The notes under the pieces: generated by a model
The model's database searches: none
What the model was told of the DNA's origin: nothing
The model's input: only the letters and a program-made list of their open reading frames with translations
Program-made: the position numbers and the translations under genes
NCBI GenBank assembly: GCA_951406725.2
Contig: OX597822.1
Coordinates: forward strand, 17,856,001 to 17,920,000
Direction of reading: 5' to 3'
DNA from: Octopus vulgaris
Taxonomy: Eukaryota
DNA: 64,000 bases
Part shown: positions 9,980 through 51,960 of the stretch, piece after piece
How the letters are laid out: every line of letters starts with the position of its first letter
Numbering within the stretch: position 1 is the stretch's first letter

Positions 9980-11271
9980 CGAGGGACGTTCAATAAGTAA
10001 TGCCCCTAATCCACTTGCAGTTGTTTGATCTAGCTGAAATTTTGCATGTGCAATTATTTATATCTCTATAGATTAAGTAGCAAATTGCAGCTCTGAACTA
10101 ATTGTGGTTTCTGATTTATAGGTGTTTGAACTGAGTCAAGTGTGAAATGGAGCCTGTTGAGTGTCGAGCAGTGATCCGGTTTTGATATTTGAAAGGACGC
10201 ACACCACGGGAGACTTTTGATGAAATGAAAGTAACTTATGGTGATGATGCCCCATCATGTGACCTTGTAAAACGCTGGCATCGTGAATTCAAACATGGTT
10301 GGAACTCTGTGGAAACAGCTCCCAGATCTGGTCGCCCCCTTCTGCCATTGATGAGGCATCTGTCCGTCAAGTCGAGGCTGCCATTTTGGAAGATCGACGC
10401 ATAACTATTCGCCAAATAGCCCATGAGGTCAAGATTAGTACCGGGTCTGTGGAAACTATCATTCATGACCATTTGCATCTGCAAAAGGTGTCTGCCAGAT
10501 GGATTCCCAGGTTGCTCACACCTTTCAAGAAGCAAGAACGCATTGAGTGCTCGAGGATGAATTTGGAGATGTGCCAAGGAGATGAGTCAAAATTTTTCAA
10601 AAGACTGATTACACAGGATGAAACCTGGGTCCATCACTATGATCCAGAGACCAAAGCCCAGTCAATGCAGTGGAAGCACCGTGACTTACCTCCTCCAAAG
10701 AAGGCAAGGCTGCAGCCTTCCGCTGGCAAGGTCATGCTCACAGTCTTCTGGGACCAGGACTGAGTAGTGATGACAGATTTCCTGGCAAAGGGTACCACAA
10801 TTGCAGGAGCCTATTTGCTTCACTTTTGAGGAAATTAAGAGAAGCTATCAAAATCAAGAGGCGGGGCAAGATCAGCAAAGGCATCCTCCTCCTGCAGGAC
10901 AATGCTCCAGTCCACAACTCGCGTGTCGCCAGATCAGAAGCACAGGCATGCGGCTATGAACCCCCCCCCCCCATTCCCCTACTCTCCTGACCTTGCACCC
11001 TCTGATTTTCACCTCTTCCCAGCCATGAAGTTGTTTTTGAAAGAAAAGCGTTTCCCAGATGATGCAGGCTTGATTTCTGAAGTCACGTCATGGTTGGAGG
11101 ACCAAGCTGGGGTCTTCTACAAAAACGGTCTCCAGAGCTGTATCAAACGATGGGAGAAATGCATAACTCTGGGTGGTTCCTATGTAGAAAAAGACTAATA
11201 ACTGTGCCAAATTTCGTTGCTCTACTGCTATGGGAAGTGGGTCAGGGGCATTACTTATTGAATGCCCCTCA
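9980..11271 (+). mobile_element. Full-length mariner (DD34D) DNA transposon with TIRs and TA target duplication
   Basis: Left TIR cgagggacgttcaataagtaatgcccct and right TIR aggggcattacttattgaatgcccctca. TA lies at 9978-9979 and 11272-11273. Confidence 0.95.
10147..11198 (+). pseudogene. Mariner transposase pseudogene (stops and frameshifts)
   Basis: Motifs MEPVECRAVIRF*, RSGRP, WIPRLLT, ITQDETWVHHYDPE, LLQDNAPVH and PYSPDLAPSDFHLF are split over three frames. Confidence 0.93.
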
Positions 11272-18154: not shown

Positions 18155-19754
18155 TGCCCTCATCTTTTGTTTAATGTTGCATTTTTCTGTGTCCTGTAAC
18201 TTATCATCTTGACAAATAGAGAATGATGAAATAAAGTACTGAGTAGCTGGTCAAATGCCCAAGCATAGCCACAATCCAATGACTAGAAGAAAAAAAAATT
18301 TTAAAAAAACATCCACAGTTCCTTAACCAGGTTCTGTAAAAGTGTGTAGCCTAATGGTTTTCGGATTGTAGGGTCATGAGACGAATGTCTGCATTGAGTG
18401 GTATGTTGTTTTGTCTTTGAGTAAGGTGCTTCGTTTTAACATTGTTCCAATCTTCTCAGCTGAAAATGAGTGCTGGTGCAACCATTCCTCTCACTCTTCA
18501 TCTGTCACATCTTTGATATTCCCTTGGTTCAAGAGCCAAGAGGCCTTTGTGTCTGTTCACAGCTACATTTCTGCCTAAATCAGTGAGTAAAATCACAGCA
18601 CATGCTACCAGACCATACTTGCTTATGAGTGACAACTATAGTTTTATAGACAAACATATGCATGGATATCAATGGAAAGTGCTAAACTTACTAATACATC
18701 CACCGATTCTTTACATAAATAATCTCATTGTTTTAAATGACACTGTAAATATATATTTAAGTCCTAATTCCTAAGACAGCAATTTTCAACATGGAGATGA
18801 AGTTGTGGAAGATACATGGCTAATCAAATGTCAAAGTTCAACACAAACCAACATAAAAGCTTTAAATGTCAAGTAATGTTTTATTATGTACAGGCTGTTT
18901 GGTAGCTTAGTTGTGTATTTTTACCAAGACGACCTTGTCCTTTCTGCATGGTTAAGTGGGGAGGTAGGCTTTAGATGTCCCAAATGCATGTCATGAGTTA
19001 GAATAGGGTCAGCGGTCATGATTGAGGTCAACCGTCCAGGGCTTTTATCATTCATTTGAAGTTGTATTCTGTTTGAAATCCTGTTCATTGATACTCAAAG
19101 AATATAAACAGAAGGAATTCTAGTGAACTTCAGTTTCAATTGGGTGCAGTATTCCATGTTGACAAAGTTGAAATGAAAAGTGATGGAGGAGAAGATTCCT
19201 CACGAGAATCGAAATGAAGGCAGTTTTTGATTTAGAGAAACAGAAACTGGCATAAAAGGGGGAAAAGCAATAATGTCTGCAAGTCAGAGGTGAATGGATT
19301 TTTGGCAATCATCAGAATGGCCTGCTTTTCTGTGCATGTCTTCTACATTTCAGAGATAAGAACTACGTCTCTTCTCTGGTACTTTTGTGTCTAAAAGACA
19401 GGTTTATAAAGATGCACGAATTAAAATATTAACAGGAAAAGAAAACAGGTTCATGTTTGGTTGTGTGGTTAAGAGACTTGCATTGCAACCACATGATTTT
19501 GGGTTTCAATCCCACAGCACAGCATCTTGTCTTTTTAAGGCCCTGGTCAAACAATGCCTTCTGAGAGGATTTGCTCCATAGAAACTACATGAAAGTCTGT
19601 TGTATATGTATATATATGTGTGTGTGAGCATGTGTTTGTTTGTTCCACTACCACTTGACAACTAGTGCTGGTTTGTTTACATCCCTATAACTTGGCAATT
19701 CATAAAAAGCATCTGATAAAATGAGCAATAAACTTTTGATAAAATAAATACTGG

Positions 19755-19887
19755 ACATTACATTATTTATATTGGATGAATATATGTCCTCATCTTGTTT
19801 GCTACCATGGGCATATAGTGTAGTGGTTAAGTGTGCAGGCTACTAACCCCAAGAATGCGAGTTCAATTCCAGGCAGTGCCTTGAATA

Positions 19888-19925
<38 letters not shown>

Positions 19926-20119
19926 CATCATCAAAAAAAATATACCTTAGGAATGAGAACCCAGGGTTGGGTTCAAAATTCTACCAGGTCACCTGATGAA
20001 GGCTGGAGAGTAAACCAGCCGAAACGTTGTGGTAACAACAAACAAGATGAGGACAAATATCCGTCCATTGTAAATAATGTAAATAATGTGCAGAATTCCT
20101 CATCTCTAAAATATAGAAG
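19755..20119 (+). mobile_element. tRNA-headed, hammerhead-containing short retroelement with Penelope-like inverted end and tail (copy 1)
   Basis: 14-bp TSD. A 44-bp inverted arm at 19758-19801 matches 20039-20082 (39/44). tRNA-like head at 19809-19880 (A box tagtgtagtgg, B box gagttcaattcc), then (TAA)n, the hammerhead, and a 37-nt unpaired tail. Confidence 0.85.
19988..20033 (+). ncRNA. Minimal type I hammerhead ribozyme motif
   Basis: Stem I gtcac/gtggt, core CTGATGA (19993-19999), stem II ggctgg/ccagcc, GAAA, loopless palindromic stem III AACGTT, predicted cleavage after GUU. Confidence 0.8.
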
Positions 20120-21212
20120 AAAATAAATACTGGGTTAATTTGTTTGACTTAATCCTTCGAGGTGATGCTCCAGAATGGCAGCAGTCTAATGGCTGAAGCC
20201 TGTAAAAGATAAATGCTTATAGGTTGGCTCCAGCTGGGCTAAATTGTGGTTATGTAACAACAACAGAGGAGAGAGTCTATGCAGTCTACTGAAAATGATA
20301 GCCAAATGGTCCTCAAATGACACCCGACTCTCTTGGAAAACGATTGGTGTATAGTCACTAATGTACTTGGAAATATGTAATTCTTATGAGAAGGACAGGG
20401 TTGCCATGGTTGGATAGAATTTGACTGTAAGTTTAGTCATTCAAGGTTGACCTGGGGTTAAAAAACAACCACCACACAATCAATGAATCCCCTTCCCCAT
20501 TCAACCAGATGTTGAGTTGGTTTGTAACTACAAATTACTTGATTGTCTATCCACATGAAATAATTAGGCTTAATTAGAACTCTTCAGTTTATCAACATTT
20601 TTTCTACTAATAAGCAACGAGGTTTCTATGCACCAATCTCTGTCATAAAAGAAGAAATGATGCTAAATATAGTGAAGCTGTAATTAAACGTTGGTGTTAA
20701 TTACAGCAATCACCACCCCTGTCATCATAGTCTATAAGGGAGATGTGAGAGAATCTTGAGGAATGGTTAAATGATAATTCTTTTTCAAAACAGACACAAA
20801 GCAGCAAATTCTTTTGTTAGTGGGGGATGGGTTAGTCATTTCCATTGGCTTGTATTTTATTTCACTGACCCTGGGAAAGTGACCTGGGTAGGATTTGAAC
20901 TCATAATGCAAAGACCCAGAACAAATACCACATCCTCTTCACTGATACTCTAGCAATACTCCCAGTTTACTATTCTTGATCTTATTTCAGTCATCAGACT
21001 GTGGTCATGCTGGGGCACCACCTTGAAGAATTATAATTGAATGAACAGACCTCACTACATAGTGTTTCCTTTTTTTTAAGTGTAATACTTATTCTGTTGG
21101 TTTCTTTTGCTGAACCTCTAAGCTATGGAAATGTAAACACACCAATGCCAGTTGTCAAGTGGTGGAGGTGGACAAACTCACACACATACACACACACACA
21201 CATGATATGCTT

Positions 21213-21502
21213 TTTACATTATTTACATTTGATGGATATTTGTCCTCATCTTATTTGTTGTTAACACAACATTTCGGATGATATAACCTCCAACCTTCAT
21301 CAGGTGTCTTGGGGTAATTTTGAACCTGGGTTCTCATTCCTAAGGCATTTTTCGATATTATTATTATTATTATTCAGGTCACTGCCTGGAATCGAACTCA
21401 GAATCTTGGGGTTATTAGCCTGCACTCTTAACCTCTACGCTGTGGGCATATATCTGTCAAATGTAAATAATGTACATAATTCCTCATCTCTTAAATATAG
21501 AA
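21213..21502 (-). mobile_element. tRNA-headed, hammerhead-containing short retroelement (copy 2; body inverted, tail direct)
   Basis: The minus strand reads tRNA head (21377-21440), (TAA)n, ttaggaatgagaacccagg, hammerhead, 3' arm. The right end repeats the arm plus the tail aattcctcatctcttaaatatagaa in plus orientation. Confidence 0.82.
21263..21308 (-). ncRNA. Hammerhead ribozyme motif, partly decayed
   Basis: Minus strand: gacac CTGATGA aggttgg aggttatat catcc GAAA tgtt gtgtt. Stem I is gacac/gtgtt. Stem II has mismatches and stem III shows CpG decay. Confidence 0.65.
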
Positions 21503-21643
21503 CTGTAGGCGTTTTTCAGTTTCCAGCTACCAAATCCATTCACAGGGCTTTGGTCAGCCAGAGGTTATACCTGGAGATATTTGCCCAAGATGTCGTACAA
21601 TAACACTGAACCTGTAACCATGGGGTTTGGAAGCAAGATTCTT

Positions 21644-23033
21644 TATTTCAATATTTTGCCATAAAGGCATTACACAGAGGGGTACACTACAACACATGTA
21701 GGGACATATAAACAATTAAAAATAAAAAAATTAAATGTGATATAATGAATGATACATGAACAACAAATCAAAATATAAGCTGAATGATATCTGAAAATGA
21801 TATTATGAAGAATGTGCTACTCACCCCCACACTGAGTAACACCACTCCCTTCCTCTGGGTCCTAAGTCCTTTTTCTCCTTCAGTCCCTTTTCTTCCTTTT
21901 TCCCCTTTCTCCATCACTTAGTGACAACATCCCCCCCCCACCAGGCATCCGTAACCTTTTTCACGGGGGGGGGGTCAGTATAGGGAGGGTAGGTCTGAGT
22001 AGCCTTGGATGGGATGGAGTTGGACTGGGGTACCACATTATACTCTTTTCTTTTTTTCCTTTTTCTCCTTCTGCTCTCTGTAACTTTCCATTCTTCTTCC
22101 TTTTCCTCCTTTCCTCAGTCTGTCTTTTCTTCCTCTTTTTTCTCTTCTGTCTCCACAACTGTTTCCTCAGCCATTGTCCTCTGTAGAGGGCAGTATGCTC
22201 TAATGTGGCCCTTTTGGCCACATTTAAAACAACGTGATACTCTGCCCTCTACCCACACCCTCAGCACGATTTCCCCCAACGTCACTGTCTCTGCCAAGTT
22301 CTCCAATTGACTCTCCTCCACCTGAATAATTAGTTGAAGTGTCCTTCCTTTCCACCCTCCTTCTTCCGTTTCTGTGGCTTGGAGGACCTTCTCCTCGCTT
22401 CCAACAAGGACAGCTGCTGCTACCCAAGCCACTTTTATATCTGGTGGAATTGCTTCTACCCTCACCTTGGAAGTCTTTCTTCCAAGATACGTGGGCAGAA
22501 GCACTATTTCCTCTGTCCTCACCACTACACTCGCCAGCCTCCTCGCCTCTTCCACTGTCCTAAGCTGGACAACCACCGTCCCGTCTTTATTTACTTCCTC
22601 TTGTTATATATGCAATTTGGCTTGATTGTTCCCTCAGTGCCTTTTCTATTTTTGCTGCTTCCACCTGTTCAAACTTCTTATACTCCAAGGAGTGTACTTT
22701 TTAGGTGATGGTCTTCTTTTCCATGTTCTCCATAATTCTTTTAGGCAGCGACAACTTCACGTCGCCTCCCACCTTCATCCTCTTGCCATACTTCTTCAAT
22801 TTGGCTAGGTCCACTTCCCTTCTCTTAACCTCCACAGCCTCAGCAAAACTCCTTGTTTTTTCCAATATTTTATCCATTTTTTCCCCCGCCCTCACGAGCT
22901 CCTCCTCTGTTGAAGACGACTCACACCCACTACAGCCTGACTACTTTGTCTCTATCCTCAAAGCAGCAACAAAAGCCAACGTCCGACACAAACAACAAAC
23001 CAAATGCACTCTGGGTGACACATGCACAGGGAC
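21644..23033 (-). mobile_element. Full-length ORF1-only (HAL1-like) non-autonomous L1/Tx1-type retroelement
   Basis: TSD gcaagattctt (21633-21643) and gcaagcttctt (23034-23044). About 155-nt 5'UTR, a gag-like ORF, a T-rich 3'UTR ending at aataaa, and no EN or RT sequence. Confidence 0.78.
21817..22877 (-). pseudogene. ORF1p-like nucleic-acid-binding protein with CCHC zinc knuckle (disrupted)
   Basis: MDKILEKTRSFAEAV...GTVVVQLRTVEEARRL..LLPTYLGRKTSKVRVEAIPPD..LRVWVEGRVSRCFKCGQKGHIRAYCP, then an acidic/basic tail (EWKVTESRRRKRK). It has several stops and at least one frameshift; the 3' end is approximate. Confidence 0.75.
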
Positions 23034-29132: not shown

Positions 29133-31687
29133 ATCATCATCATCATCATCGTTTAACATCCGTTCTCCATGCTAGCATGGGTTGGACGGTTCGACTGGGG
29201 ATCTGGGAAGCCAGAAGGCTGCACCAGGCTCCAGTCTTATCTGGCAATGTTTCTACAGCTGGTTGCCCTTCCTAACGCTAACCACTCCATGAGTGTAGTG
29301 GGTGCTTTTTACGTGCCACCGGCAAGGAAGCCAGTCGAGGCGGCGCTGGCATCGGCCACGATTCGGATAGTGCTTTTTACGTACCACCAGTCCAGGGGTC
29401 CTGGCATCTGCCGGGTGCCAGTCATAGGATTGGTTCAATTTCGATTCCGATTTCATTTGCCCCAACAGGTCTTCACAAGCAAAGGGGGCTGGCACGGGTG
29501 CCTGTCATCGGATAAAGTTCGATATCGACTTCGCTTGCCTCAACAGGTCTTTGTGTGTCCAAGGGAGGGAAGGCATGCATAAGTGGGCTGGACTCACTTG
29601 TCCTGCCTGGTCTTCTCACATACAGCATATTTCCAAAGGTCTCGGTCGCTGGTCATTTCCTCAGTGAGGCCTAAAGTTCGAAGGTCGTGCTTCACCACCT
29701 CGTCCCAGGTTTTCCTGGGTCTACCTCTTCCATGGGTTCCCTCAACTGCCAGGGATTGGCACTTTTTCACACACCTATCTTCATCCATTCTCACCACATG
29801 ACCATACCAGTGCAATCGTCTTTCTTGCACACCACAACTGATGCTTCTTAGGTACAACATTTCTCTCAAGGTACTAACATTCTGTCGAGTATGTACACTG
29901 ACATTACACATCCATCGGAGCATACTGGCTTCATTCCTCGCGAGCTTACGCATGTCCTCAGCAGTCATGGCCCATGTTTCACTGCCATGTAGCATGGCTG
30001 TTTGTACACATGCATCATACAGTCTGCCTTTTACTCTGAGCGAGAGGCCTTTAGTCACCAGCAGAGGTAGGAGCTCCTTAAACTTTGCCCAGGCTATTCT
30101 TACTCTAGCAGTTACACTTTTGACGCACCCACCCCTACTACTGACTTGGTCACCTAGATAACAGAAGCTATCAACTACTTCTAGTTTTTCCCCCTGGAAA
30201 GTGACGGAAGTTGTTTTCTGCAGATTTTCAGAGGTTAATGCTCCCGAGCATCTGCCACATACAAAAACTATCTTCCCAGTTAGCCTTCCTTTGACATTGC
30301 TGCACCTCTTATGTGTCCATAGCTTACACTGGGTACATCTTATAGAGTTTCTACCTACACCTTTCTACAGATCGAGCAGAGCCATCTTCCTGAAGACATT
30401 TGTGGATTGTCTACCATCCTACTTATTAGTGCTTTGGTTTTAGCTAGGTTGACTCTAAGGCCCCTCGATTCTAAACCCTCCGTCCACACCTGGAACTTCT
30501 CCACCAGTTCTGATAGTGACTCAGCAATTAGAGCAAGGTTATCAGCATAGAGGAGCTCCCAGGGGCAACCTGTCTTGAATTCCTCCGTAATTGCCTGGAG
30601 GACTATGATAAATAGGAGGGGGCTGAGAACTGAACACTGGTGGACCCCAACCTCTACTTTGAATTCTTCTGTGTACATGTTGCCAACCCTAGCCTTACTT
30701 ACGGCATCCCTCTACATGGCTTGCACAGCCCTCACCAGCCGTTCATCTATCCCTAGTTTCCTCATTGACCACCAGATAAGGGATCGGGGGACCCTGTCAA
30801 AGGCTTTCTCCATGTCAACGAAAGCCAGGTACAGGGGCTTATCTTTGGCTAGGTATTTCTCCTGCAGCTGCCTTACCAGGAATATAGCATCAGTGGTACT
30901 TTTCCCTGGCATGAACCCAAACTGCATCTCATCTAAACTAACTCTCTTTCTAATTAGTTGGGCTATGACCCTCTCCGTAACCTCCATTACCTGATCCAAC
31001 AGCTTGATACCTCTGTAATTATTTGTATCTAGGGCGTCACCTTTACCTTTGTAGCAGTTGACTAGTATGCTGCTACACCAGTCATTGGGTATGACTCCTT
31101 CGTGTATCACCTGGTTAACTATACGGGTGACTAGGTTATAGCCGACACTGCCAGATATTTTAAGCATCTCTGCAGTAATTCCTGATGGGCCTGGGGCTTT
31201 CCCTGTCTTCATGCTTCTAATTGCTTTAACTACCAAAGATGGCTGGTTTAAGATGGCTGGTCCCCTTGTTGGGTTGACATTCGGCAGACTCTCTTTATCC
31301 CATTCATTTTCTTTATTCAGCAAACTTTCATAGTGGCGTCTCCAAACCTCTCTCTTTGCATCCTCATTTAGCGCAAGTGAACCATCATCCATGCGGACAC
31401 ATTTCTCTCCTGCCAAGTTTAAGGCTGGTCCCCTTGTTGGGTTGACATTCGGCAGACTCTCTTTATCCCATTCATTTTCTTTATTCAGCAAACTTTCATA
31501 GTGGCGTCTCCAAACCTCTCTCTTTGCATCCTCATTTAGCGCAAGTGAACCATCATCCATGCGGACACATTTCTCTCCTGCCACATCACGATTCTCTCTC
31601 ACACACTGTCTTGCAACATGAAATACCTCAAGTCTTTTATCCTCACAGCTCAGAACATTGGCAAATTTTTTCTTATTCGCTTCTCCG
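29133..31687 (-). mobile_element. 5'-truncated RTE-clade LINE (RT domain, 3'UTR, (GAT)n tail) inserted in (TA)n
   Basis: KAPGPSG, NYRGIKLL, QFGFMPGKSTTDAIF, FVDMEKAFDRVP, GVHQCSVLSPLLF, LLYADNL, LHGSETW, RRLHWYGHV, GRGRPRKTW. Contains an internal 168-bp duplication. Confidence 0.95.
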
Positions 31688-31757
31688 ATATATATATATA
31701 TATATATATATATGAATATATATATATATGAATATATGGATATATATATATATATGG

Positions 31758-31786
<29 letters not shown>

Positions 31787-31788
<2 letters not shown>

Positions 31789-32388
31789 GAAGTGAATCTA
31801 TGGCACAACGAAGTACCGATATTTACTGGAAATAGCGAACATAATAATACGACGCTAATGTGTAGCTTCACCGCGTATGTACTATCAAAAATGCGTGAGT
31901 GCAACAAACTTGAAAAAAATTGTCTTACCTCCAGGGAGAACATCTAAAAGATGAAATTCCTAGAAAAGGATAATGTGGGACCGGCGCCGGTTTCAGATTT
32001 TTCAAGATATGCCTGCACACATATACTTGATCTATCTTCATCAGCCAAACATATACCATGACAACATTTCAGATGTTACCACATTAATGCCAATACACTC
32101 GACTGAAACGCCAAAATGCTAACAGAATGAGAACGGTGAAGAAGTTTCAATAAAATTAGTAATGCAATACGAGAGTATTGCTTTTTTGCTTTCCAGTAAA
32201 GAATAGCCCGTGAGGGAAAATTATACATAGAAGTAAATATATGGCACAACGAAGGACCGATATTTACTGGAAATAGCGAATGTAATAATACGACGCTAAT
32301 GTATAGCTTCACCGCGTATGTACTAGCAAAAATGCGTGTGTGCAACAAACTTGAAAAAAATTGTCTTGCCTCCAGGGAGAAAATCTGA
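31787..32388. repeat. Unclassified element: two ~160-bp direct repeats (period 441 bp) around a ~280-bp spacer
   Basis: tagaagt..atggcacaacgaag..cctccagggaga occurs at 31787-31947 and 32228-32388. It is CpG-rich and flanked by (TA)n on both sides. Confidence 0.85.
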
Positions 32389-34616
<2,228 letters not shown>

Positions 34617-40745: not shown

Positions 40746-43006
40746 TCTTCTTCTTGGCATCGTTTCACTGTCAAGGATTAGGAAGGCTGCTGCCCACGAA
40801 ATCTGCACACTTGTTCGTGGCTGATAAGGCCAATGTGGGAACGAGATATCTCATTGCAGTGATGACAGGGGTATGTTTGTTCAGGGTCTGATGATGAACT
40901 TTGCATTATTTTTTCACCTCTGACATTTGTCTTCAAGAGAGGTGCAGTGAGAGATCACAAAGGAGGAAACAGCATTGCTAATGGTATGGCGCCAAGTGAT
41001 GTGGTCAGCTGTTACAGTGGACCACTCATGATAATCAATGTCACAAATGCTAAGGAACTGCTTCAGACAGTCCTTGTAACACTTCCTTATTGGCCTTTAT
41101 TGCGTTGGCCAGTGGTGAGTTCACCGTACATGATGATCTTAGGTAGGAGGTGGTCTTTCATCCTGTCAACGTGCCCTGCCCAATGGAGTCGTGTCTCAAG
41201 TAAAATGGCTTCCAGACTGGTGACCTTTGCTTGCTTGAGGACCTCAGTGTTGGTGATGTAGTTGTTCCAGTAAATGTTGAGGATGGTACAGAGGCAGCAT
41301 TGGTGAAAAAGTTGAAGGGACCTGAGATGATAGCAGTAGGGGAGCCAGGAATGTGAACCATATAGGAGCATCGTGAAAAGGACAGCCCTGTAGACTTTTG
41401 TTCTGATTTTAAGATCTTGTTCCACACACATTTGTGCAGTCTGCCAAATGCTTTGCTTGCCTTTGCAAGTCTGCTGTCAATTTCTTTGTCGATACTCACA
41501 TCTGATGAAATGGTACATCCAACATAAGTGAACTGCTGTACTGACTTCAGTTCTGTTTCAGCAATGGTGATGTGTGGTGGGCTGTACTCTTCCTGAGGAG
41601 TTTGTTGGTGTAGGACTTCAGTCTTTTTCAAGCTTACTTCCAGCCCAAAGAGCTGGGTGGTCTTTGCATAGCAGGATGCAATGTGCTGCAGGGCTCTTTG
41701 TGTGTGTGCGATAAGTGTGGCATCATCTGCAAAGAGAAGGTACTGGATCAGTCTTAGCGTGGGCTTGTAGGCACTGGAGGTTGAGAAGACTGCCATCTAG
41801 ATGGTACATGATGTAGATACCATTTTTGGCATCGAGGTCTACAGTGGCTTGCTTGCGCATCATGCTGAAGAAGATGCTGAAGACAGTTCGTGCCAGGACA
41901 CAGCCTCGCTTCATGCTGTTGTTTATGGGGAATGCCTCAGATATGTCACTATTTAGGTGGACTTGTCCTTGTTGGTCTTCATGAAGCTGGATGATCATGG
42001 TTAGGAATTTTGGGGGACAGCCAAGTCGGTTTCGGATCTGCCACAGACCTTTCCTGCTTACAGTGTTGAACGCTTTTGTCAGATTGGCAAATGTTAAATG
42101 AAGTGGGTTGTTTTGTTCCCAGCACTTTTGTCGGAGAATAAAAACCATATCTGTTGTGCTCCTGTTGGCTCTGAAACCACATTGGCTTTCTGGAAGATAA
42201 TTTTCGGCAATGGACAGAACAAGTCTGTTGAGGAGTAGTCTTGCTAGAACTTTTCCTGCAATAGAAAGCAGTGTAAGCCGCCCCCCACCCACAGTAATTT
42301 GAGCTGTCTGACTTTTCCCCTTTGTTTTTGTACAGTGTAAGGATAACAGCATTGCAGAGATCTTGTGGTAGCTTTCCCTGTTCCCAGCATGCAATGAAGA
42401 GCTCATGGAGTTTAGCATGTAGGACAGGACCTTCATGCTTCCATATCTCTGGTGGTATGCCATCCTGCTGTCTTGGCAATGCTTGGAGGGTGTGTGGAGT
42501 CTTTCCTTTTTGTAATTGTGCATATTCGACCACTTGAAGATGCCTGTTGGCCACTGTTTGCCAGCTGGGTGTGTAGGAGACGAGCTTTCTTTAGGCCACC
42601 ATTTCTAGCCCCCTCTTCATGTGGAGCAAGCAGTGCACTCCCTAGATAAGGCTGCTTGGTCATTTGGGATGCTGCCAAGTGATGTTGTTGACTCCAGGTC
42701 AACACCAGATGAGCACTGGCCCGAACCACCCGCATGCAGGTTGGGAGCTGCGATTTCCAGTGACATCTTCCGCTTGCCCTTTTCACCCCCTTCCCATCGT
42801 TACAGGGCTTGGGGAGTTGGGATCATGGTTGAGGATGTGGACAGGTCTTTCAGCCTGCATGATGGAGTTTAAAGGTGAAGTGCAGTCTGAGCAAAACTGG
42901 CCCATCCTTTACACCTGGGGTTCATCTGCTATGGCCCAGCAAGCTGGGATGATGACAAAGAGGTCCTCAGGACATGGGTTTTCTATCAGAGTGTCCTTCT
43001 CCCAGA
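40746..43006 (-). mobile_element. RTE-clade LINE with 5'UTR, RT and 3' end but no endonuclease
   Basis: 5'UTR motif ggagaaggacactctgat. The ORF start joins DGIPPEIWKH near 42470. Motifs LPESQCGFRANRSTTDM, LLFADDA, FGLEVSLKKTEVL, LHWAGHV, and C-terminal CHHC..HIGLISH. Confidence 0.9.
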
Positions 43007-46584: not shown

Positions 46585-47025
46585 TCATCTTTTAATGTTC
46601 ACTTTTCCATGCTTGCATGGATAAGATGAAATTTGTTGAGATGTATTTTCTACAGCTGGATGCTCTTCCTGTTTCTAACCCTCCAATGTTTCCTAGCAAA
46701 GGTAATATTTCCCTATGGCTAGACATGATTTTCATGACTGGACTGGAAATAAGCCACACTGCTTGTACGACAGTGATGCTTATTTACTGCCATTCTATGG
46801 TGTCAAGACTAAGGTACACACAGACATATACAGACACATGCATTCACGTATACCCACATACATGCACCCACACACACAACATTGTTTCTTTCTATTTTTG
46901 TCTACCAAATCCAATCAGAAGGCTTTGGTTGGCCTGAGGTTATAACTGAAGACAATTGTCCTCGTGCCAAACAGTGGGTCTGAACTCAAGACCACATGGT
47001 TGAGAAGCAAGCCTCTTAACCACAC
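46585..47025 (-). mobile_element. SINE with tRNA/CORE-like head and RTE-type tail
   Basis: The head matches the 17770 SINE. The tail ttttccatgcttgcatgg..ctacagctggatgctcttcc matches the RTE 3' end. Similar copies lie near 25240-25830 and 49010-49560. Confidence 0.7.
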
Positions 47026-49163
47026 AATGTGTTTAGTGCCTTTGTGTTTGTCTCTCAGTAATTGACAGCCGGCACTGGTTTGTTTACATCCTCATAATTG
47101 AGTGGTACACCAAGAAAGAGACTAATACAGGAAGTGCCAGGCTTAAACCCCAAATACTGGAGTCAGCTTGACCGACTAAACCCAAAGCATTCTCCAGCAT
47201 GAGCAAAGTCCTGTAACCAAAGCAAGTAACAAAAAAAAAAAAAAAAAAGAAGAGTATGCATAATTTATTCAAATACCAATAATTTTGCAACAACAGCCAG
47301 ATAATAGAATTGTTTGCCTGCAGTCATGTTATTATTCCAACATAAAGAATCCTTAGAACTCATCCAAGCTTTAAATGTTATTGTTTCCTTCCCATAAGAG
47401 CAAATTATTTCAAACATGAAGAATTTATTAACAATAGGCATTATAGAGTTAAAATAAATAATACATATCACTTTCTAAGTGAATTCTGTGTATCGTTAAT
47501 ATAGTGAGTGATGGAGAGACTTTGAAAGTAAAATATTTAAAAATTATCAAAGATTATTTAATTACAATAAAGATAGAAATATTTACTCCATGGAATAATG
47601 TTATAATAAATAAAAATCAATTGTCTGGTTTTTGCGGATCAGATCGAACCATCAACTGGGATAATTTTATTGACATTTTTATTTGGGGAAGTAGGAAATG
47701 AATGCAGTTGTGACATTCATGCCTTTTTCACGAGTTAATAAACTGAAAATAACTACAACTTGGAGTTATAAATAGATGCCAGACTTAGTCCAGCAAGTGG
47801 TTTCTGTTTGATCCAAAGATTAACTTGGAACTCCAGATGATTCCACCTGAAATGTTAGGTTTTTCTTTTCTCTCTTAGCAAAATAATTTCTTTCATTTTA
47901 TGGAGTTTTCTATATTCTTTTGGCAGACGCAGAGCATTATTTGTTGTCTTGAATTCACTCAGTAACTTACGTGTGTATCATGTGTTTGTTTTTTGTTTTT
48001 TTTTTTGTTTGGAATGCTATTCTACACAACATGATATGTCTGTAGGTTTGGTATTAGGATTGCATTCCGAAGTAGAAACCATGCCAAAGCAGAGAGTGGG
48101 ACTTGGCTGTCCGCTGAATCACTGGCTTCTCTTGAACAATCAAACCCATGTAAAACAGATGTTAAATGATGATGATGATGTCTACTCCAACCCTTTGTCT
48201 TTATATGCAATACCTTTGCAAACAGATAATGAGAGATGATCAACTGAACTGGTTTCCATCCTATGCTGGGATATTACTAGTCACAAATTACTTTCATTAC
48301 CATCATCAGCATATTGCTTATAAACCCACTCTTACTAAAGGCTTATGCTAATCAAACAGACCAATTTACTTATTATAATGCATTCTTGATAGTTCGTTTG
48401 ACTAATGAATTGGAGTATTTTCATGTTGTTTTGACAAGTGAGTGTTCATCAAAACACAGGGACTGAGTTTGCTGAACAACCCTCACGATGAGTATTGTTG
48501 TTGTGGGTATATTTTCTGCCAATCCAGTCCCACCCTCATGTCCTTCCAACTTGTATTGTTTGGTGCAACAAGTACCCTCGGTCCAGCAGTTATCAGAGTG
48601 CAGGCTTTGTATTCCTGGATAAGCAACACTGAGTTTATGGGGTTGTCTGTGAGTAACCTTCTTCTGGATGCAGTTCTGTAATATGTTTATCAGCCTATAG
48701 CTGGGATCCTGCCAGGAGCTGCTACTCTAGGTCAGAGCAGATATGGGAACAATAGTATTGAAGAGTTCGGTTCCGTACTCTTCGAAACTTTCAAACAGGG
48801 ATCCACTATTGGATTTAGGCTAAACCCATACTCAAGAATTTAAAATAATTATGTGTTAACAGTATTTCATTTTAATGTTCTTCTAATCTACAGAATATAA
48901 CCATAGGTTTTAACTAAGAGGGTAAGATGTAAATACCTTGTTTTAATGCACAGGATCAGAAAAAAAAAACAGGGATCAATCAGCTTCACTAGTTTCAATA
49001 TCATATTGATGCTGGCATAGCTGTAGAGTTTAGAAGTTTGCTTGCCAGCTATGTGGTTCAGTCCTATTTTGTGGTACCTTTAGCAAGGAGTCTCTACTAT
49101 AGGCCCAGATTGACCAAAGCCTTGTGAGTGGATTTCATCGATGGAAACTGAAAGGAGCCTATC

Positions 49164-50861: not shown

Positions 50862-51183
50862 CATCATCATCATCATCATCATCATTTAACGTCCGCTTTC
50901 CATGCTAGCATGGGTTGGACGGTTCAACTGGGGTCTGGGGAGCCCGAAAGCTGCACCAGTCCAGTCAGATCTGGCAGTGTTTCTACAGCTGGATGCCCTT
51001 CCTAACGCCAACCACTCCGAGAGTGTAGTGGGTGATTTTATGTGCCACCGACACAGGTGCCAGACGAGGCTGGCAAACGGCCACGCTCGGATGGTGTTTT
51101 TTATGTGCCACCGACACAGGTGCCAGACGAGGCTGGCAGACGGCCACGCTCGGATGGTGTTTTTATGTGCCACCGACACAGGT
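50861..51183 (-). mobile_element. RTE 3' terminal copy with ~62-bp tandem units
   Basis: (CAT)n tail. ttttatgtgccaccgacacagg repeats three times from about 51037. Confidence 0.88.
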
Positions 51184-51544
51184 ATATATAAATAGATGTA
51201 TGTATGTATAAAACAGGTCTCTGAGTTTTTGGCCATGAAATCAAGTCACAAAGCTTTTGTTAACCTGGGGCTATAGTAGAACACAATACCCAAGGTGTAA
51301 CAGTGTTTTGAATCCAGCACCACATGGTTAGTAAGCAAGCTTCTTAACCACACTGCCACATTTGTGCCTATTATATATATGTGTTTGTATACAACAGGAG
51401 TTTTTTCCAGTTTCTGTCTTCCAAACCCAATCACAAGGGTTGGCCATAGTTGGAGAAACTTGTCCAAGGTGTCCTACACTAGGACCAAATCTGAAAGTAT
51501 ATCGGTGTGAAACGAACTTGTTAACCACACCGTCATGCTTGCAC

Positions 51545-51960
51545 TTTTCTTGGAAATAATTTTTCGATGTTTGGTCATCGACTTTGAACTCTGCTGTTTG
51601 CCAAGAAGTTAATGTTTCATCCTTCACCAAGTTGAATCTGTTTCTGGGTTGTTGAAGTAAAACAGTTTTGTTATGAAGATGTTTATAGCCGAAGCCTTTT
51701 TAAACATTAATTTTGCCTGCAGATAAAATGCTTCTGTGATCACATTGCCAGCAGACCATGAACATCAATCTCTTGTGATGCAATTTCATACAAGTTTTCT
51801 TATTGTGTGTTTAACAGTTGAGTAGTTATCATAATAGACTTGATATTTGCCTTTCAGCTATCTGTAGATGTGTGTCCTAATGAGCCACATCATTTTGCTC
51901 TGCTTTCTTAAAAGATATCACCCATATTGTCGATCGTTTCCTTTTATCTGCTTCTATAGT
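51545..51960 (-). mobile_element. Very decayed mariner-like transposase fragment
   Basis: Minus-strand remnants YYDN and KLHHKRLMFMVCW resemble mariner YDN..LHxKKxMLxVWW. Confidence 0.35.

Follow-up and report, generated by a model that had tools for sequence, protein, structure and literature searches.

A candidate non-autonomous Penelope-like retroelement with a tRNA-like head and a minimal hammerhead in the genome of Octopus vulgaris

Two short insertions in a stretch of Octopus vulgaris DNA (the window, meaning the whole 64,000 nucleotides that were analysed) share the same outer frame and have bodies that are inverted relative to each other. What kind of element produces this arrangement? 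The initial annotation of the locus proposed Penelope-like element (PLE)-style integration from two head-to-head cDNAs. The common frame on which this proposal was built is present: the left parts (19758-19801 and 21214-21257) are 89% identical over 44 nt, and the right parts (20076-20118 and 21460-21502) are 93% identical over 43 nt. The bodies match in inverted orientation in two blocks, 19970-20083 with 21213-21326 (114 nt, 85%) and 19817-19888 with 21370-21441 (72 nt, 86%), and a body-to-body blastn comparison gives an E value of 2e-52 over the whole body. Between copies, 58 of 69 positions are identical in the head and 118 of 136 from the middle to the end. As originally described, the head of copy 2 (boxes from 21442) and its hammerhead (core at 21303) lie on the minus strand.

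In its own sense the repeated unit consists of a tRNA-like head, an (AAT)n tract, a middle segment, a minimal type I hammerhead, an end region and a tail (Table 1). Each copy is a single insertion in which two arms of this unit are joined head to head, with a target duplication of about 14 nt on either side. Copy 1 comprises the reversed end region, which has no tail, followed by the whole unit with its tail. Copy 2 comprises nearly the whole unit in reverse, again without a tail, followed by the last 33 nt or so of the end region with the tail. The arm lengths are therefore swapped in the way that had been reported, with a short inverted arm in copy 1 and a long one in copy 2, the head of the latter lacking about 6 nt; the 29-nt tail is found on the long arm in copy 1 and on the short arm in copy 2. 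An inverted arm and a tail on one arm only are seen in both copies, and we read neither copy as carrying two tails. The related claim that the tail occurs only on the direct part holds as an observation (one tail on one arm, 2/2 copies) but fails as a rule, which is circular because "direct" is defined by the tail. Similarly, the common outer orientation of the two copies is a one-in-two coincidence. Within copies, the arms are identical at 39 of 44 positions in copy 1 and at 29 of 34 over the common block in copy 2. The target duplications, a stem-loop joining the end region and the tail, and a possible coincidence of the copy 1 breakpoint with the ribozyme cut are additions to the earlier description.

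Table 1. Coordinates, within the window, of the two copies and of their host sequences
Feature	Position	Strand	Remarks
Host SINE interrupted by copy 1	19439-20209	+	Pieces 19439-19754 and about 20120-20209
Copy 1 left target duplication	19741-19754	+	14/14 identical to 20120-20133
Copy 1 short arm	19755-19801	-	Reverse of end region, tail-less; inverted repeat 39/44
Copy 1 spacer, 7 nt	19802-19808	-	Between short arm and head
Copy 1 tRNA-like head	19809-19884	+	A box 19816-19826, B box 19860-19870; starts 7 nt before A box
Copy 1 internal (AAT)n tract	19885-19925	+	
Copy 1 minimal type I hammerhead	19988-20033	+	Core 19993, predicted cut 20028/20029
Copy 1 end region	20029-20089	+	Tail-less arms stop at equivalents of 20080-20089
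Stem-loop	20045-20105	+	9-bp outer stem, 20045-20053 with 20097-20105; encloses stop point of tail-less arms
Copy 1 tail, 29 nt	20090-20118	+	
Copy 1 right target duplication	20120-20133	+	
Host SINE interrupted by copy 2	20966-21646	-	Interrupted beside its (CA)n tract; pieces 20966-21211 and about 21503-21646
Copy 2 left target duplication	21200-21213	+	Decayed, about 14 nt; edge uncertain by about 3 nt
Copy 2 long arm, end region downstream of predicted cut	21214-21267	-	Tail-less
Copy 2 minimal type I hammerhead	21263-21308	-	Core 21303, predicted cut 21268/21267
Copy 2 middle segment	21309-21352	-	Within the window, unique to this element family
Copy 2 internal (AAT)n tract	21356-21374	-	
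Copy 2 tRNA-like head	21375-21443	-	Lacks about 6 nt of 5' end; A box 21442-21432, B box 21398-21388
Copy 2 short arm	21441-21473	+	Last 33 nt or so of end region
Copy 2 tail, 29 nt	21474-21502	+	26/29 identical to copy 1 tail
Copy 2 right target duplication	21503-21516	+	Decayed

Both flanks of both copies adjoin 3' ends of the unit, which is why the same motif is seen at both ends of each copy. The outer junctions fall at two fixed places, each in 2/2 copies. Tailed arms stop at the same base, the tail end, 90 nt past the predicted hammerhead cut, and tail-less arms stop 52-61 nt past that cut. The outer stem of the stem-loop (z -2.56, with 2 of 200 shuffles as good) joins the end region with the tail, and both of its strands are intact in both copies. 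At the stop point of the tail-less arms, a 9-nt unit is doubled in copy 1 (20072-20089) and single in the tailed arm of copy 2, and thus the length of the tail is blurred to 29-38 nt.

The target duplication of copy 1 has a P value of 0.0026 against random 24-mer pairs. That of copy 2 is decayed, and its left edge is uncertain because a TTT could belong either to the host or to the element. When its left and right flanks are compared directly they agree at 8 of 10 positions, which is not significant (P 0.20). Both flanks match one 14-nt segment of the host (left P<1/1500, right P 0.013) in a test that used 8 of 11 candidate empty host sites. A target duplication in copy 2 is in this way only indirectly supported. 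The targets are only mildly AT-rich, with 11/14, 10/14 and 8/14 against a background of 64%.

There is also a resemblance between the copy 1 tail and the host sequence beyond the tail-less arm (19726-19754; 6/8, and 16/29 overall, with an AT-matched, post hoc P of 0.003-0.007), compared with 9-11 of 29 at empty host sites. We do not read this flank as a second tail because it is collinear with the host SINE (40-42/64) and holds the 14-nt duplication. Nothing similar is found beside the tail-less arm of copy 2. The resemblance may reflect pairing between primer and RNA, a preference of the endonuclease for tail-like DNA, or chance. It runs against a clean PLE reading; the anole PLE required no target homology (PMC11167929).

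Each copy has Pol III A and B boxes, which start at 19816 (+) in copy 1 and at 21442 (-) in copy 2; they are separated by a spacer of 33 nt and carry 4 mismatches over 18 positions, and 0.61 sites of such quality are expected anywhere in the window. The scores of both copies are within the range of those of the host-SINE heads. The start of the copy 1 head, 7 nt before the A box, corresponds to tRNA base 1. No cloverleaf is obtained from the head, whose stems are broken, and ARAGORN (0) and Rfam (0) both miss it, which causes us to call it tRNA-like rather than a tRNA. At the anticodon position the two copies read ACT and AAT. The boxes and their spacing suggest that the head is of tRNA origin. 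The sense strand of either copy is free of a run of four T residues for more than 500 nt, and a Pol III transcript would therefore continue into the flank. An internally starting reverse transcriptase would tolerate such read-through.

Among the four matches to the hammerhead core in the window, only those at 19993 (+) and 21303 (-) pass the stem criteria, and 0.01 such sites are expected per window. Stem I has five pairs in both copies, one of which is altered on both sides (T-G to A-T), and stem II has 6/6 pairs in copy 1 and 5/6 in copy 2. In both sequences the core is accompanied by a 6-bp stem II that is preceded by an extra A and opens with a G-C pair, by a loop-less palindromic stem III and by a U at position 17. 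Position 15.2 of copy 2 is a T, which gives a wobble pair. Minimal hammerheads of metazoan PLEs are described as having an extra base before stem II (after A9), a G10.1-C11.1 pair, palindromic 15.2-16.2 positions and no loop 3 (PMC4209133), and these features of the minimal type I hammerhead are present in both copies. We consider the hammerhead to be a predicted ribozyme of the minimal PLE type, whose cut register is set by the 5-pair stem I. Rfam misses it, with nothing at gathering level and five weak unrelated matches across its results. Each insertion carries one hammerhead. When two hammerhead copies are folded together no dimer fold is obtained, just a 6-bp self-pairing at -5.7 kcal/mol. 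Hammerhead pairs on opposite strands and 100-700 bp apart have already been noted (PMC4209133).

Between copies, the inner junctions differ by about 24-25 nt. The short arm of copy 1 is clear as far as 19801, and the head begins at 19809. Given one slipped CAA unit, the intervening 7 nt agree at five of seven positions with 20029-20035, the 7 nt that immediately follow the predicted cut; the two differences are transitions, one of which would be a CpG created at the junction. The chance of such a match is 0.014 in exact register, 0.033 when a deletion of 0 or 3 is permitted and 0.095 for any deletion of 0-6 nt. The short arm of copy 1 may thus stop exactly at the predicted hammerhead cut, adjoining tRNA position 1. 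Alternatively, the spacer may be a SINE 5' leader or filler. A profile-based extension of this arm to 19807 was discarded as circular, the arm itself being in the profile. The short arm of copy 2 does not begin at the cut: it starts about 20 nt beyond the predicted site and joins a head without its first 6 nt or so. An 11-mer at this junction is ambiguous, matching the 5' end of the head at 9/11 positions and the end region at 8-9/11. Perhaps it marks a microhomology jump to the 5' end of the RNA, a collapsed palindrome or plain decay.

These features point, with fair probability, to a non-autonomous retroelement of about 300 nt in which a tRNA-like Pol III promoter sits on the pLTR/tail end of an endonuclease-bearing PLE, and whose insertions are made from two target-primed cDNAs. 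Mobilization by a PLE in some form is very likely. The original argument that a variable inversion point with a fixed tail fits PLE-style integration is strengthened by the PLE-type hammerhead, the 3' ends at both flanks, the duplication of about 14 nt and a tail of PLE size. From this anatomy we infer transcription, a partner PLE, two cDNAs and any cleavage, as follows. Pol III would transcribe from the tRNA-like head and read on past the element. The PLE protein would bind the end stem-loop and make a staggered cut about 14 nt wide, and both 3' overhangs would prime reverse transcription, one at an outer start from which the tail is copied and the other at an inner start some 29-38 nt upstream from which the tail is skipped. 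Two cDNAs of independent length would then be joined head to head. Either primer would be free to make the long cDNA, and so copies 1 and 2 would represent the two outcomes that are possible. Both cDNAs of copy 1 may be run-off products, which end at tRNA position 1 in one case and at the 5' end left by hammerhead cleavage in the other.

There are precedents for parts of this scheme among PLEs. The anole PLE in vitro is described as cutting and extending both strands, as a predicted dimer, from two internal stem-loop starts that bracket the tail; its commonest start lies 85-92 nt after its ribozyme cut (26 subtracted from 111-118; PMC11167929), and the tail end here lies 90 nt past the predicted cut. 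The stem-loop of the octopus element is the counterpart of that of the anole PLE. PLE tails are reported to measure 30-40 nt and to occur at either end (PMC8557442), and a rotifer PLE is described with a tail on one of its inverted pLTRs and with duplications of 8-10 bp (PMC3846280).

Two other routes to the same anatomy retain a PLE as the agent. One, which we regard as unlikely, is that the source already had a short inverted arm and that copy 2 is an isomer formed by arm exchange or template switching, together with the loss of about 24 nt from the inner junction. Exchange between the arms of copy 1 would yield exactly the order of parts in copy 2, and the copy 2 junction aligns to that of copy 1 with one gap. 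This route requires the extra deletion, however, and a Pol III transcript begun at the head would omit the upstream arm. The four arms differ by 9-21% in all pairings without consistent grouping, as expected of decay after insertion, and three informative sites group them in three ways. One site unites both short arms against both long arms, as an inherited arm would (chance 0.025-0.06, or 0.07-0.17 for any of the three groupings), but another groups the arms by copy, the third is a CpG, and the base shared by the short arms may derive from a head-like 9-mer at the copy 2 junction. Slightly less likely again is formation of the inverted arm by self-priming, in which an antisense template or the first cDNA folds back. 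Palindromes at inverted junctions have been reported in rotifer PLEs and such a model proposed for them (PMC3846280); here there is a 6-bp palindrome at each inner junction, and that of copy 2 holds the first 9 nt of the head in inverted form. Against this, palindromes of 6 bp often arise by chance, what the arms reproduce is the 3' end region rather than sequence adjacent to the junction, so that fold-back alone is insufficient, and extension from both target strands is described in vitro (PMC11167929).

The remaining explanations dispense with a PLE altogether, and the earlier rejection of a MITE or an ordinary SINE insertion holds, since the unit meets its flanks with a 3' end on both sides. 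With a single RNA as template, twin priming of the L1 kind inverts an upstream part. It is improbable that the element is an ordinary tRNA-derived SINE that was moved by a LINE and inverted in this manner, even though its head is tRNA-like, its duplication measures 14 nt, the window contains RTE-type LINEs, and the copy 1 target can pair with the start of the tail at 6 of 8 positions. The inverted arm of copy 1 is nested inside the direct arm and is not an upstream part, the second start site is identical in both copies, and the hammerhead is of PLE type. There is no 3' simple repeat, and the end of the element is a unique sequence without significant match elsewhere in the window, LINE fragments included. 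A MITE with terminal inverted repeats that enclose a captured SINE in two orientations would explain the target duplication and the presence, near both ends, of inverted arms 34-47 nt long. We give this very little credence: the right inverted repeat ends 29 nt inside the element in 2/2 copies, the arms differ in length, and turning the element round would put the tail of copy 2 on the left, whereas it stays on the right. An artefact of assembly or amplification, or a local duplication, seems equally far-fetched. Inverted PLE structures are reported to trouble assemblies (PMC8557442), and the copies are close together (P 0.045 for two random points), but the arms differ by 11-15% within copies and the bodies by 13-16%, and the insertions occupy different host-SINE positions with different duplications.

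Both copies had been placed in one SINE family in opposite orientation, and this is correct (host 1 +, host 2 -; the copies are 1095 nt apart, end to start). The host SINE is probably an octopus family. It covers 7-9% of the window, and the probability of 2/2 insertions falling in it is about 0.005-0.009, a post hoc value with n=2 that is not counted as enrichment. The body of the element is sense to the host SINE in both insertions, which may be chance with n=2. Abutting pieces of the host SINE are also found at 46855-47181 and 51171-51551, where the members of one pair are 6 nt apart and point in opposite directions and those of the other are arranged in tandem. Pairing of the two copies in a read-through transcript, as had been suggested, is possible (duplex -287 kcal/mol) but unremarkable, in that 24 host-SINE matches make 19 inverted pairs within 3 kb. 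Such pairing joins sense with antisense and therefore could not give rise to a hammerhead dimer.

The window is repeat-rich animal DNA (64% AT), and a scan of 25 of its 56 long frames shows RTE-like reverse transcriptase fragments, a piece of a mariner-type transposase and a zinc knuckle. Two frameshifted RTE-like LINE fragments (RVT_1) lie at 29594-31797 (-) and 41087-42604 (-), one with a C-terminal PHD-like finger. Among the species-named matches listed for a LINE frame of the window, the best is from Octopus bimaculoides (70% identity over 55% of the query), and the others show 46-51% identity. The mariner-type fragment is at 10287-10763 (+), and the zinc-knuckle frame, at 22115-22603 (-), is immediately to the right of the host SINE of copy 2. 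A block with 7% GC at 32001-34000 is apparently a long AT microsatellite tract. Additional A/B-box pairs with 3-4 mismatches, outside the mapped host-SINE matches, start at 534 (+), 9399 (-) and 26965 (-) and are possibly the heads of other tRNA-derived SINEs.

No third copy of the element is found elsewhere in the 64-kb window by blastn or nhmmer; the next-best head matches to the element profile have nhmmer E values of 0.056 or worse, and several are at host-SINE heads. Its 21-nt middle motif has no match in the bacterial and archaeal genomes scanned, in which the hammerhead pattern is matched nine times against about seven by chance (a hand estimate), with none alike beyond the pattern. Plasmid and phage collections give no match to the element, and its translations match no protein among longer or similar-length proteins, nor among 1.84 billion representatives. 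There is no RT plus GIY-YIG ORF in the element, the longest sense frame of copy 1 having 67 codons, and an autonomous PLE was rejected on this ground. That frame (19923-20126, +) is free of stops and spans the middle, hammerhead, end region and tail; the matching frame in the long arm of copy 2 has one stop. It could be a relic of the N-terminus of a partner PLE. No partner was found, there being no GIY-YIG match among the 25 of 56 long frames scanned. In the genome of O. vulgaris as a whole, Penelope-like elements are reported to make up 6.83%, with 30 Penelope families recently active (PMC13282606).

With its predicted hammerhead, inverted arm, one-arm tail and target duplication, the element has the structure of a putative non-autonomous PLE derivative. 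Insertions of EN+ PLEs of the Penelope/Poseidon type, including rotifer Pen2a and anole PAc, are likewise described with a head-to-head inverted arm, a tail on one arm, a short duplication, a minimal type I hammerhead and a 3' stem-loop (PMC3846280, PMC8557442, PMC11167929). Compared with these descriptions, the element has no RT or GIY-YIG frame, a tRNA-like Pol III head replaces the pLTR promoter, there is no direct partial tandem, and the duplication is 14 nt rather than the 8-10 nt of the rotifer examples. Chlamys MRC1 is also a non-coding PLE derivative, and it shares its 3' end with an autonomous partner; Chlamys PLEs such as this are green algal and mostly without canonical hammerheads, and no tRNA head appears in their description (PMC8557442).

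Other short non-coding elements share one portion or another of the architecture. Schistosome SM-alpha and Sj-alpha have a Pol III promoter followed by a hammerhead, but they are often tandem, with canonical hammerheads and, by description, no inverted arms or tail (PMC6765202), whereas the octopus copies are dispersed monomers with a minimal PLE hammerhead and an inverted arm. Animal non-LTR retrozymes are short, non-coding and equipped with a type I hammerhead, and it has been proposed that they are PLE-derived or PLE-mobilized (PMC7229834, PMC7761336, bioRxiv 10.64898/2026.07.22.740005). They form head-to-tail tandems and are said to be without promoters, unlike the present element with its A/B boxes, one hammerhead per insertion and head-to-head arms; a tandem non-LTR retrozyme was accordingly rejected as a classification. 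The words tRNA, tail and octopus each occur 0 times in the main text of the retrozyme preprint (bioRxiv 10.64898/2026.07.22.740005). The A/B boxes, the 33-nt spacer, the length of about 300 nt and the target duplication are as in tRNA-derived SINEs (consensus in PMC8969392), from which the element differs in having no 3' simple repeat, an internal (AAT)n tract and no 5' end at either flank; its unique end sequence and flanking 3' ends led us to reject a LINE-type SINE insertion.

The flip of the arms is not new, because PLE insertions that have a target duplication, an inverted arm and a tail at one end or the other have already been described (PMC8557442, PMC3846280). In a survey confined largely to open-access papers, no tRNA-headed PLE derivative with inverted arms was found, and none of six motifs was in any paper. 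The terms hammerhead and ribozyme occur 0 times in the text and supplement of the O. vulgaris repeat paper (PMC13282606). What may be new is the tRNA-like head on a PLE-type end, and the arm of copy 1 that may end at the ribozyme cut.

Two questions about PLEs are open, namely how the inverted ends arise and whether cleavage by the minimal hammerhead takes place in vivo. The in vivo role of these hammerheads has been called "still a mystery" (PMC7761336), and it is reported that no RNA reads end at the ribozyme cut and that cleavage is not needed in vitro (PMC11167929). We suggest, tentatively and with more doubt than confidence, that the family consists of PLE-dependent SINEs whose insertions preserve the 5' ends of their RNA templates, with short arms ending at the hammerhead cut and long arms at tRNA position 1. 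If true, this would amount to evidence from the genome both for in vivo cleavage by PLE minimal hammerheads and for the use of the 3' cleavage product itself as a template for integration. A defined Pol III start and a defined cut provide two fixed landmarks, and thus a plot of inner breakpoints over many copies would test both questions from genome sequence alone. Extrapolating from one window, two copies per 64 kb indicate that the family may be large enough for such a plot. The element would also be a natural minimal substrate for PLE integration assays. More generally, it would add PLEs to the machineries that move SINE-like RNAs, being in effect a SINE whose partner is a PLE and not a LINE.
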